Assembly: GCA_964549615.1 (NCBI GenBank)
Contig: CAZJVP010000104.1
Coordinates: 57,919 to 121,918, forward strand
Direction of reading: 5' to 3'
Length of the DNA: 64,000 nucleotides
Source of the DNA: an uncultured Thermococci archaeon
GTDB taxonomy: Archaea > CAYQAE01 > CAYVLA01
This document shows, piece after piece, positions 4,002-15,129 of this stretch; the stretch's first letter is position 1, and every line of letters starts with the position of its first letter. The notes below the pieces were generated by a model, which saw only the letters and a list, made by a program, of their open reading frames with translations, ran no database searches and was not told where the DNA came from. Made by a program: the position numbers and the translations under genes.

Positions 4002-4912
4002 CACCCATCGGCGAGCTCTTCGAGCTGCTTTCTGGTCGGGAGGCCGGCCCGGGCTCCCAACTTCTGGACGCAGAACCAGGCAACCTTGGCCCCGATCCTG
4101 CCGCAGTCGGCCAAGCTCATTCCAGTCATCAACCCGTAGATGAACCCAGCGTTGAAGGCGTCGCCTGCGCCGGTTGTGTCCACCCCCCTGCCTCCGTAGG
4201 CAGGGACCCTTTCCTTGATGGTTCCGTCGGTGATGTAGCATCCCTTGAGCCCCATCTTGACCGCAACCGCTCTTGCCCCCATCCTCAGCAGTTTTCTTGC
4301 ACCCTCTGCTGGAGCTAGCCCGGTCATTAGCCGAAGCTCCCTTTGGTTGGGAAGGACGACCGCACATTTCTCAATTATGGGCTTCAGAGCAGCCAGTCCC
4401 CTTTCGGCGTAAAGTTGGCCTGGGTCCAGGCTCAGTGGGATTTCGATTTCCTGCGCAATGGCAAGCTGGGTTCGAAGCGAGAGGTCGGTCGATTTGCAGA
4501 CGAAGGAGGTCATGTGGAGCAGGTCAAAGCTCGCGAGGTACGCCAGATCCACGTCCTGCAGCGAGATGCAGTCGTTCACTCCGGGGTCGATGAGGAGGGC
4601 CCTTTGGCCTTGCCTGTCCACAAGGGACAGCCCGGCTCCCGTCCTGCCCTCGCAGACAACGATGCCGCTTGTTTCCACGCCCTCGGCCGCAAGATCCCTA
4701 AGCATGGCAGAGCCCTCTGGATCTCTTCCAACTTTGCCCACATAACCGGTGCGCATGCCAAGCCGGGAAAGGCCGACGATGGTATTTGCGGCCGATCCCC
4801 CGGGGTGCCACTCCACGGAGAGCACGAAACCTTCCTCCTCCGCCGACGGTATCTTGTCGACCAACGCGATCTTGTCCATGTTCAGCGCGCCAAACCCCAC
4901 TACGCCAGGCAC
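3998..4912 (-). CDS. PfkB/ribokinase-family carbohydrate or nucleoside kinase
   Basis: PGGSAANT, VGKVGRD, PNQRE, DTTGAGDAFNAG signature. Confidence 0.93.
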   Translation of the reverse strand: MPGVVGFGALNMDKIALVDKIPSAEEEGFVLSVEWHPGGSAANTIVGLSRLGMRTGYVGKVGRDPEGSAMLRDLAAEGVETSGIVVCEGRTGAGLSLVDRQGQRALLIDPGVNDCISLQDVDLAYLASFDLLHMTSFVCKSTDLSLRTQLAIAQEIEIPLSLDPGQLYAERGLAALKPIIEKCAVVLPNQRELRLMTGLAPAEGARKLLRMGARAVAVKMGLKGCYITDGTIKERVPAYGGRGVDTTGAGDAFNAGFIYGLMTGMSLADCGRIGAKVAWFCVQKLGARAGLPTRKQLEELADGC

Positions 4913-5004
4913 GGTCCCCCGTGAGGGAGAGGTCTCTTATAGCTTCTTGTTGGTAATGGGCAAATCCGTCAACATTTTTCTGTAACACTTTTCCCGGCTC
5001 TAGC

Positions 5005-5019
5005 GAAATATTTATATTC
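5005..5019 (+). promoter_or_regulatory. BRE+TATA promoter upstream of repeat protein 1
   Basis: GAAATATTTATATTC in an AT-rich gap; 14/15 identical to 48935-48949. Confidence 0.65.
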
Positions 5020-13305: not shown

Positions 13306-14175
13306 TCATACGCCGGTTGGGAGGATCTCCCTGACTAGAAGGCCTATCAGGAAGCTGAGTCCGGCGACGCCCAGGCTGATGCCCGCCATCTCGAGGAATC
13401 GCCTCCTGAATGGCTGGTCCTTGGCGACCGAGATGTAGAAGCTGAAAACTAGGATAACCACTATCGCATTGAGGATCGTGAACGCCAACGCATGGTAGAT
13501 GTTCACGAAGACTAGGAAAGGCATGATCAAGAAGAGAACGGTCAAGACGTAGGCAACGCCAGTGTACACCATCGCCCGCCCAGGCTTCCTCGGACCGCCC
13601 TCCGACTTGGTGGATAGGTATTCTGACGCAGCCATCGAGAAGGATGCCGCTATTCCGGTTATCAACCCCGCGACGGCAACGAGACGTGTGGTCCGGAGGG
13701 CAAAACTCAACCCGGCAAGGGCGCCGGTAAGCTCGACTAGGGCATCGTTGAGTCCTAGGACGACGGACCCTACGTATCTCAGTCTCTCCTCGTCTAACAG
13801 GCCTAGAAGTTGCTTCTCGTGGTCCTGCTCATCCGTCATGACGTCCTTGATTCCGGGCAGATGGCCCGCCATGCGCTGGTAAGCGGCCTGGGCCCTTCCC
13901 TCCCCCCTCTCCATGAGCTTGAGGGCGAAGGTGATGCCCAAGACCTTTGAGATGAGCATGAATTTGTAATACCCTGTGCGGCTCGGCGCAACATCGATCC
14001 CGGTGTTCTCTCTGAAGAAACTGTAATGCTTCAGCTCGTCCTCGGCCACCCTTTCGAGGATCTGGCTGTTGTGCGGATCGCGGACGGACTTTGCTAGCTT
14101 GCTGTATACCCGGTGTTCGGTGATCTCATTTCTCTGCGCGGCTATTAGCCTTCTCGCTAGGTTTTCTGGTTCCAT
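13306..14175 (-). CDS. rubrerythrin/ferritin-like N-terminus fused to VIT1/CCC1 metal transporter
   Basis: QRNEITEH, DELKH, DEQDHE; SVVLGLNDALVELTGALAG and SMAASEYLS (VIT1). Start placed at ATG 14175. Confidence 0.9.
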   Translation of the reverse strand: MEPENLARRLIAAQRNEITEHRVYSKLAKSVRDPHNSQILERVAEDELKHYSFFRENTGIDVAPSRTGYYKFMLISKVLGITFALKLMERGEGRAQAAYQRMAGHLPGIKDVMTDEQDHEKQLLGLLDEERLRYVGSVVLGLNDALVELTGALAGLSFALRTTRLVAVAGLITGIAASFSMAASEYLSTKSEGGPRKPGRAMVYTGVAYVLTVLFLIMPFLVFVNIYHALAFTILNAIVVILVFSFYISVAKDQPFRRRFLEMAGISLGVAGLSFLIGLLVREILPTGV

Positions 14176-14333
14176 TGGCTCACGGAGGCGCCGCGTGCTA
14201 TTAAAGTGGTGCGTGGCGTGGCTCCGTTGGACATTCGCAGGCTGCACCCCCAAGCGGGCAATACCGTGAGGTTCGTCCAGCCCCAGGTCCAAGACGGTGG
14301 CAATGCCAGCCCGGGGGCTCGACGATGCCCCGT

Positions 14334-14350
14334 GAAATTACATTTTAATT
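14334..14350 (+). promoter_or_regulatory. promoter of stand-alone 5S rRNA gene
   Basis: GAAATTACATTTTAATT; TATA spacing predicts a start near 14370-14374, where the precursor stem begins. Confidence 0.6.
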
Positions 14351-14384
14351 CTGCCGTTGGGTTGTCTGTGCGCGAGGGGCAACG

Positions 14385-14533
14385 AGCCGGCGGCCATAGG
14401 GGCCTGGAAACACCCGGTCTCATTCTTCTCGGAAACGATGAAGGAGGAACCCGAACCCGGAAGTTAAGCAGGCCTGCGTCCCTTGCTGTACTGAGGTGGG
14501 CGACCCCTCGGGAACCATGGGTCGCTGCCGGTT
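14385..14533 (+). rRNA. rrf: 5S rRNA containing a 26-nt insertion (putative BHB intron) in loop C
   Basis: Conserved 5S blocks GGCGGCCATAG, GAAACACCCGGTCTCAT, CCGAACCCGGAAGTTAAG, GTACTG, GGGAA, TCGCTGCC. Helix I ends pair; helix II GGCCTG (14401-14406) pairs with CAGGCC (14469-14474). About 121-123 nt without the insert; exact ends are approximate. Confidence 0.95.
14424..14449 (+). other. putative BHB-type intron within 5S rRNA
   Basis: TCTTCTCGGAAACGATGAAGGAGGAA, a GAAA-tetraloop hairpin bounded by a canonical hBHBh' motif; removal gives loop C UCUCAUCCCGAAC. Confidence 0.8.
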
Positions 14534-14550
14534 CGTCCAATCTCGCAGAT

Positions 14551-15129
14551 CTAATCGCCGAGCGTTCTCTTTGCGGCCAGCACCCTTTGGGCCACGGTCA
14601 CCCAGGCTAGGATGCCGATGATGACGATGCCTGCCTGAAGGACGTTGACTTGGGTGGTCAGAGGGTGGAATATGCTGAAGAGAGCCAGCATCACCTGCCT
14701 TTCAGCCCGCTCCGCGATGCCGACCGCCATGCCCGTTGACCCGGCGGCTTCGCCTCTAGCCCTGCAGTAGGGAACGAGGAACGATCCGAAGACCGTCAGC
14801 ATTACCAGCCGCCAGTCCACGATCTCGGAGAGCGCGATCCCACCTAGGACGGCGAAGTCGGATATGCGGTCGAAAGTCGAGTCCAAGAAGCCCCCGAACC
14901 GAGAGACTCGACCGGTTATCCGTGCTACCGCCCCGTCCATCGCATCAAGCGCTCCGGAAGCCAACAAGACAACCCCACCGAGCTGCACCATTTTGAAGCG
15001 GTAGAGGACGGCGGCTACGATCGCGGTGAGAAGGCTGAGGGAGGTGACGGCGTTTGGGGGCAGAAAGGATATGCCTGCAGCAAGACGATCGAAGTACGCG
15101 TTGACTGTGCGACGGTATCTCGTGAGCAA
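14551..15129 (-). CDS. CDP-alcohol phosphatidyltransferase (archaetidylinositol-phosphate synthase-like)
   Basis: PNAVT, DAMDGAVAR...FGGFLDSTFDRISD, YCRARGE, ERAER. Confidence 0.9.
   Translation of the reverse strand: MLTRYRRTVNAYFDRLAAGISFLPPNAVTSLSLLTAIVAAVLYRFKMVQLGGVVLLASGALDAMDGAVARITGRVSRFGGFLDSTFDRISDFAVLGGIALSEIVDWRLVMLTVFGSFLVPYCRARGEAAGSTGMAVGIAERAERQVMLALFSIFHPLTTQVNVLQAGIVIIGILAWVTVAQRVLAAKRTLGD

Follow-up and report, generated by a model that had tools for sequence, protein, structure and literature searches.

5S rRNA has hitherto been the one archaeal rRNA thought to mature without the splicing endonuclease, and the surveys and reviews consulted treat inserts in 5S rRNA genes as expansions that are retained in the mature molecule. 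This raises the question of how to read the 5S rRNA gene found in a 64,000-nt stretch of DNA from an uncultured Thermococci archaeon (assembly GCA_964549615.1, contig CAZJVP010000104.1, positions 57,919 to 121,918; the whole stretch is called the window hereafter): is the 26-nt insert within loop C of this gene kept in the ribosome, or is it a bulge-helix-bulge (BHB) intron that is spliced from the transcript? The gene occupies positions 14386–14533 of the plus strand of the window and is a full-length 5S rRNA gene of 148 nt including the insert (Rfam 5S_rRNA, RF00001; 89.8 bits, model positions 1–120), with the Rfam alignment gathering 27 bases at one model position and placing the extra bases inside loop C. 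A sequence-only reading of this DNA had proposed that the insert and the adjoining loop C bases adopt an hBHBh' geometry, in which outer helix, bulge, central helix, bulge and intron helix succeed one another; both the bases that it named and their arrangement have been confirmed here by the Rfam match, by the sequence and by a geometry scan. Judged from sequence, we consider it quite likely that the insert at 14424–14449 is a BHB intron that is cut by EndA and joined by RtcB in the sole 5S rRNA gene of this organism.

The geometry scan read the 5' strand as outer helix h, central helix H, a 3-nt bulge and intron helix h', and the 3' strand as h', H, a second 3-nt bulge and h, with the cuts placed after the second base of each bulge; a motif was called canonical when it showed H 4/4, h' 4/4 and h at least 2/3. 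Flanking helices h and h' of BHB motifs require a minimum of 2 bp. In the window H is formed with 4/4 pairs, h with 3/3 and h' with 4/4 plus three extra pairs, which corresponds to a canonical tRNA-type hBHBh' motif: the units found in a tRNA anticodon-loop intron are present in the same order, in agreement with the topology that had been claimed from the sequence (Table 1). Spliced products were scored with an nhmmer profile built from 25 insert-free archaeal 5S rRNA genes, and here the earlier statement that cuts after the second bulge bases remove exactly 26 nt and leave a canonical 5S rRNA proved accurate: the product of excision is a 5S rRNA of 122 nt that scores 86.1 bits against the profile, compared with 73.3 bits for the unspliced gene. 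Further BHB candidates within the window 5S rRNA gene led to no gain in score, with the best one after excision losing 17.3 bits. Shuffling of the intron produced a canonical BHB no more than 4 nt from the true boundaries in 5 of 1080 trials (about 0.5%); keeping the hairpin and randomising only the last six bases of the insert did so in 39 of 1080 trials (3.6%). The match to BHB geometry at the insert is more than chance.

Table 1. Features of the 5S rRNA gene and of the DNA directly upstream of it (positions are those of the window).
Feature	Position	Strand	Description
TTACATTTTAAT block	14338–14349	+	12 bases, about 37 nt upstream of the 5S start; invariant in 7/7 relatives, surrounding DNA divergent
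Leader directly 5' of the mature 5S start	14372–14385	+	Partly conserved; invariant alignment columns G81–G83, A86, C88–A90
Exon 1, 38 nt	14386–14423	+	5' strands of helices I, II and III, loop A, 5' half of loop C; ends UCUCAU
Outer helix h, 5' strand CGG	14415–14417	+	Precursor: would pair with CCG 14451–14453; mature RNA: part of helix III
Central helix H, 5' strand UCUC (exon)	14418–14421	+	H 4/4 in the geometry scan
5' bulge AUU	14422–14424	+	Predicted cut between 14423 and 14424
Putative BHB intron, 26 nt	14424–14449	+	BHB geometry scan; excision raises the 5S profile score
Intron hairpin h'	14425–14443	+	CUUC 14425–14428 / GAAG 14440–14443, then UCG-GAAA-CGA; bulged U 14439
Central helix H, 3' strand GAGG (intron)	14444–14447	+	Would pair with exon UCUC
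3' bulge AAC	14448–14450	+	Predicted cut between 14449 and 14450
Exon 2, 84 nt	14450–14533	+	Begins CCCGAAC; 3' half of loop C and remainder of the 5S rRNA
Outer helix h, 3' strand CCG (exon 2)	14451–14453	+	h 3/3 in the geometry scan

In the model that we propose, the 5S rRNA would be transcribed from its own promoter, apart from the 16S-23S operon. Within the precursor, the exon bases UCUC would pair with GAGG at the 3' end of the intron to give a central helix of 4 bp, and CGG would pair with the CCG downstream of the insert; the intron would fold into a hairpin of its own, leaving two 3-nt bulges on opposite strands in the topology of a tRNA 37/38 intron. EndA would then cut after the second base of each bulge and RtcB would ligate the exons, which would yield the 122-nt 5S rRNA with a canonical loop C, and the 26-nt intron would probably be circularised. 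Afterwards CGG would re-pair and thereby complete helix III. This exchange of partners, from h in the precursor to helix III in the mature RNA, had been anticipated and follows from the sequence.

The enzymes that the sequence-only reading had called for, EndA together with an RNA ligase, are both encoded. The source genome holds an EndA of 393 aa with two PF01974 stretches and an N-terminal PF02778 (C88; L110 1456–2637, minus strand; G, C and L numbers are our handles for genomes, contigs and loci), an EndA paralogue of 403 aa (C90; L111 1195–2406, minus strand) and RtcB (607 bits). In the window's family EndA is encoded twice, once as a two-unit protein with about 390 aa and once as a protein of about 400–500 aa, and EndA is present in all five genomes of the window's phylum. 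A search of the whole source genome (3.21 Mb in 104 contigs, 99.46% complete) returned a single 5S match, and no second or insert-free 5S copy, the existence of which had been raised as a point to check, was found either in this genome or in G001–G004 (one match each; genomes 91–100% complete). Concerning the tRNA genes of the source genome, aragorn predicted 47, of which 17 carry introns of up to 70 nt. The BHB criteria identified a canonical motif in 1 of these 17 short-intron tRNAs, a figure affected by the unreliable intron lengths given by aragorn and by introns of 15–18 nt being too short for a 4-bp h'; for these reasons it was not used as an estimate of the sensitivity of the scan.

Inserts in related and distant 5S rRNA genes

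The insert is found at the same site in all five species genomes of the window's phylum, each of which has a single 5S rRNA gene of 146–158 nt; in comparison genomes from 36 members of other phyla, the same search gave full-length 5S matches of 113–124 nt. In the family of the window, and in its relatives from metagenomes, the bases that flank the bulges (CUUC...GAAG, and GAGG or GAGA) are constant, and the tip of the hairpin varies in both sequence and length. Three independent metagenome contigs (L073, L079, L105) carry an identical 148-nt 5S rRNA gene.

Two collection scans, one of genome contigs and one of metagenome contigs, specified the conserved bases around loop C of 5S rRNA and set no constraint on the content of the insert. 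Inserts at the same site are present in 5S rRNA genes of records titled Ca. Woesearchaeota (L034, L062) and Ca. Aenigmatarchaeota (L039), and also in the metagenome contigs L074, L077/L101 and L080. These inserts from other lineages are 20–30 nt long and form hairpins that are unrelated in sequence, all of them parse into the same BHB units, and their hosts were confirmed as 5S rRNA genes. Over the 23 distinct loop C contexts, pairs 1–4 of the central helix H are formed in 21, 23, 23 and 23 contexts, respectively, with all four present together in 21 of 23, and pair 3 covaries (U-A 8, C-G 14, U-G 1). In case of h', pairs 1–4 are formed in 23, 22, 23 and 22 of the 23 contexts with four to seven pair types each, whilst the first two pairs of h are formed in 23 of 23. 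The 5' bulge is exactly 3 nt long in all parsed homologues (AUA 19, AUU 3, GUA 2, AUG 2; n = 26). Across these contexts the BHB motif is maintained by compensatory change. The screen of other archaeal 5S rRNA genes that had been suggested on the basis of the window alone has hence revealed loop C inserts with the same geometry and with compensatory changes, and these comparative tests support the interpretation as a spliced intron; cleavage, ligation and circularisation of the 5S insert are the steps that we infer from them.

Most of the 39 loci returned by the genome-contig scan were rejected as false, consisting of Thermus and its kin matched via the normal 5' end of their 5S rRNA, of random matches and of tandem-duplicated loop C sequences; the 40 loci of the metagenome scan contained a similar mix of false matches. 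In the 5S rRNA genes L040, L045, L054, L070, L086, L091 and L100, the loop C/helix III segment is duplicated in tandem; one of these genes contains Ns, and they resemble assembly artefacts. In L039, a tRNA match of 111 nt (4898–5008, minus strand) lies about 0.7 kb from the intron-bearing 5S rRNA gene and presumably contains an intron itself.

Two further surveys were based on length and used no sequence pattern: 5S rRNA genes of more than 128 nt were taken as expanded, and a BHB was counted if its excision gained at least 5 bits. In the phylum of G041, a 5S match was obtained in 149 of 151 genomes, nine genes were expanded and seven of these nine exhibited a canonical BHB; in the phylum of G042, the corresponding values were 135 of 151 genomes, 16 expanded genes and a canonical BHB in 11 of the 16. 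Taken together, 18 of the 25 expanded 5S rRNA genes contain a canonical BHB, excision of which restores the profile. Among the 37 distinct expanded archaeal 5S rRNA genes that were examined first, a canonical BHB is present in 27.

BHB inserts also occur at other positions in 5S rRNA. In L117–L120 they follow CUCGGA on the 3' strand of helix III, with H formed by CUCG/CGAG, and in L136 the insert follows UUCGAA in loop C; L143, which belongs to another phylum, has a similar insert of 18 nt after UUCGAA/UCCGAA. Two of these genes, L117 and L120, bear two inserts each, and removal of both leaves 116–117 nt. The second insert site of the DPANN archaea lies at what we take to be about 52/53 in E. 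coli numbering. At every site, the four bases that lead into the 3' bulge can pair with the four exon bases that lead into the 5' bulge. Such complementarity, shared across sites, is the rule of a BHB and no feature of 5S architecture, and we regard it as the strongest single argument for intron character.

The BHB insert is therefore fixed in all five genomes of the window's phylum and sporadic at several sites in DPANN-type archaea. It seems moderately probable that 5S rRNA harbours a genuine class of BHB introns, widespread and not described before, that is fixed in one phylum and, in two DPANN-type phyla, occurs at three or more sites in some 6–12% of the genomes sampled, with some genes bearing two introns. 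That the same few sites are used repeatedly could reflect insertion at places exposed in the folded or assembled 5S rRNA, for example by reversal of cleavage and ligation. Among the remaining matches, some were of unusual form: G017 has two adjacent sub-threshold 5S matches of 90 and 104 nt (C1:337637–337831), G040 one sub-threshold match of 93 nt (C1:227942–228034) and G012 a partial match that covers model positions 17–62 only (C23:13411–13456). Such matches might stem from 5S rRNA genes that are split or heavily interrupted.

Retention, incomplete splicing and artefact as alternatives

An insert of this kind might instead be a retained expansion segment, in which case the 26 nt would stay in the ribosome as a hairpin projecting from loop C atop the central protuberance, and the BHB shape would be incidental or serve another purpose. 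Several results favour this alternative and hence weigh against splicing. The minimum free energy (MFE) structure predicted by RNAfold for the window precursor (-64.4 kcal/mol) differs from the BHB: mature helix III is preserved in it and the insert continues this helix as an extended hairpin, in a register shifted by two bases, with the forced BHB lying 5.4 kcal/mol higher (-59.0 kcal/mol). Loop C is also host to inserts that lack a BHB, both in other archaea and, with a length of about 40 nt, in bacteria. In the phylum of G007, 12 of 13 expanded genes (L142, L144, L145–L154; 137–140 nt) contain a hairpin on the 5' side of loop C and no BHB; this G-rich/C-rich hairpin of 17–20 nt shows compensatory changes, is present in 10 of the 12 sampled genomes of one genus, with the two others lacking it (L155, L156; 120 nt), and is probably a retained expansion segment. 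In the bacterial group with an expanded loop C (L076, L078, L082, L085, L090, L092–L095, L099, L102, L104, L109), the insert consists of two small hairpins, and the expanded 5S rRNA gene of L090 adjoins a bacterial large subunit (LSU) rRNA gene. Conservation throughout the window's phylum would, moreover, suit a structural element as well as a fixed intron. Retained 5S insertions are documented, and the available text of PMC7812874 names positions 34–37 and 52–53 of loop C as those where retained expansions in bacteria meet the least obstruction; with the second DPANN site taken to lie at about 52/53, retention is not sterically absurd.

What speaks against retention is the relationship between the insert and its host. 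The register of the MFE hairpin is complete in only 2 of the 23 loop C contexts, as opposed to 21 of 23 for the central helix of the BHB, and since it is not conserved we have set it aside and rejected it as the biological fold of the window 5S rRNA. The 3' bases of the insert (14444–14447 in the window) are complementary to core loop C bases (14418–14421), again in 21 of the 23 contexts; the window insert therefore differs from the self-contained helices, devoid of complementarity to the core, by which expansion segments are characterised in the portion of PMC7812874 available to us. Pairs of bulges, each of exactly 3 nt and with 4 bp between them, are seen again at several sites in 5S rRNA that are unrelated to one another and with hairpins of unrelated sequence, and a canonical BHB is present in none of the 10 unique bacterial 5S rRNA genes with a loop C insert of about 40 nt and in none of the 13 expanded genes from the phylum of G007. 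The chance rate in the trials that kept the hairpin, 3.6%, likewise counts against retention. On balance, retention of the insert seems unlikely to us.

Further observations count against a spliced intron without pointing to a particular alternative. Ten of the 37 expanded archaeal 5S rRNA genes are non-canonical (G004, L074, L080, L116, L121, L122, L123, L125, L126, L133), of which G004, L074, L080, L116 and L133 miss the geometry by one pair or by a shift of one base; in L133 the insert is located three bases downstream of the main loop C site and h' is formed with 3/4 pairs. The third pair of the outer helix is present in only 10 of 23 contexts, and outside the window's family h is often only 2 bp long. 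G004, the most distant member of the phylum, has an A opposite a G in its central helix (H 3/4) together with h 2/3, and its only EndA is a protein of 190 aa. The RNA data lend no support and are not taken to speak either way: no RNA contig from either of two sequencing runs aligned to window positions 14336–14583 at 90% likeness. One metatranscriptome matched 0.50 of 12 sampled words from the 148-nt gene, a value that fits the spliced form, partial cover or a relative equally, and the second run matched next to none of the sampled words.

It is also conceivable that EndA cuts the precursor while the pieces of 38 and 84 nt stay unligated, held together by helices I–III, or that spliced and unspliced 5S rRNAs coexist in ribosomes. 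All evidence for recognition by EndA applies equally to such an outcome. Exons of tRNA and rRNA introns that are cut at a BHB are ligated, however, which we count against it, and here RtcB is encoded and the sequence holds no hint of blocked ligation. Fragmented or permuted archaeal rRNAs that arise via BHB processing have been reported, with a permuted 23S rRNA described in the available text of PMC7758197; even so, cutting without joining, or partial splicing, appears quite improbable in this case. Harder still to credit is a non-functional locus or an artefact, in which a mis-assembly or pseudogene would be seen here and the real 5S rRNA gene would be missing from the bins. In its favour could be cited that the genome is in 104 contigs and that other scanned contigs show artefact-like tandem duplications of loop C. 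Against it, the insert is present in five of five phylum genomes and, within an identical gene, in three independent metagenome contigs, the spliced exons score 86 bits, the promoter block is invariant and genomes that are 91–100% complete contain no other 5S rRNA gene. We have therefore rejected a pseudogene or assembly artefact; that the insert is real, as the sequence-only reading had assumed, is borne out by its recurrence in independent assemblies. Excision of the insert by EndA and ligation by RtcB is thus the reading that we prefer.

Genomic surroundings of the gene

The 16S rRNA gene of the source genome is split over two contig ends (C46, C78) and the 23S rRNA gene follows on C46, whilst the 5S rRNA gene is located on C104; since the 16S-23S genes lie on other contigs, the 5S rRNA gene is taken to stand alone, unlinked to them. 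Upstream, the TTACATTTTAAT block is probably an archaeal TATA/BRE-type promoter. The neighbours of the gene, both encoded on the minus strand, are a VIT1/rubrerythrin-like open reading frame (ORF) on one side and a CDP-alcohol phosphatidyltransferase ORF on the other. Two ORFs overlap the 5S rRNA gene itself (14157–14540, minus strand, 127 aa; 14206–14610, plus strand, 134 aa); these are mechanical and do not warrant protein annotation.

Relation to known introns and expansion segments

The sequence-only reading had known of no described spliced intron in 5S rRNA, and our literature searches agree: a full-text search, with most subscription journals outside its coverage, did not turn up any account of 5S rRNA with a BHB or otherwise spliced intron, and the phrase "5S rRNA intron" has zero occurrences in the same full-text literature. 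If splicing of the 5S insert is true, the substrate range of EndA and RtcB extends to 5S rRNA and ribosome assembly in a whole phylum relies on tRNA-splicing enzymes; all three routes of RNA processing in the large subunit would in that event require the endonuclease and the ligase of tRNA splicing. Unrecognised introns would likewise explain why DPANN 5S rRNA genes score poorly or are missed, and for annotation this means that 5S models should permit BHB inserts at these sites. The window would, in addition, provide a compact natural system, comprising a 148-nt precursor and a 26-nt intron, for the competition between a BHB and a mature fold.

Comparison with archaeal pre-tRNA introns (position 37/38; EndA and RtcB) reveals the same outer helix, 4-bp helix between exon and intron, 3-nt bulges, hairpin and cut positions, and the likeness extends to the shortness of the putative window intron (26 nt) and to the presence of the enzymes. 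In contrast to these introns, the host in the window is loop C of 5S rRNA and no anticodon loop, the outer helix of 3 bp would be given up in favour of mature helix III, and the case is known here from sequence. A BHB intron also occurs in the archaeal cbf5 pre-mRNA, which likewise takes the BHB pathway outside tRNA, although its host is a protein-coding RNA, unlike 5S rRNA. Archaeal rRNA introns known to date are usually much longer than 26 nt. With the BHB introns of 16S and 23S rRNA the window 5S rRNA would share the tie between rRNA maturation and the tRNA-splicing machinery, whereas the literature that we found describes none for 5S rRNA. BHB introns and the BHB processing stems that flank 16S and 23S rRNA are EndA substrates in rRNA, according to the available text of PMC7714728 and PMC10515664, and in that of PMC12918454 excision and circularisation concern 16S and 23S, not 5S rRNAs.

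Retained 5S expansions offer the other comparison. The available part of Stepanov and Fox (2021, PMC7812874) describes the 108-nt insert of Halococcus morrhuae and loop C inserts of clostridia, and there archaeal expansions are reported only in Halobacteriales; the expansion modules have no noticeable complementarity to the 5S core and were kept in the mature RNA where tested, with the caution that untested inserts might be excised. The window resembles these cases, as far as that text describes them, in that the 5S rRNA is lengthened by a helical insert and loop C is one of the sites used, and it differs from them in that its insert is complementary, in the geometry of a BHB, to bases of the loop C core. 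The mechanism to which this geometry points is already known from other RNAs; what is new is 5S rRNA as the host and the fixation of the insert throughout a phylum in its sole 5S rRNA gene.
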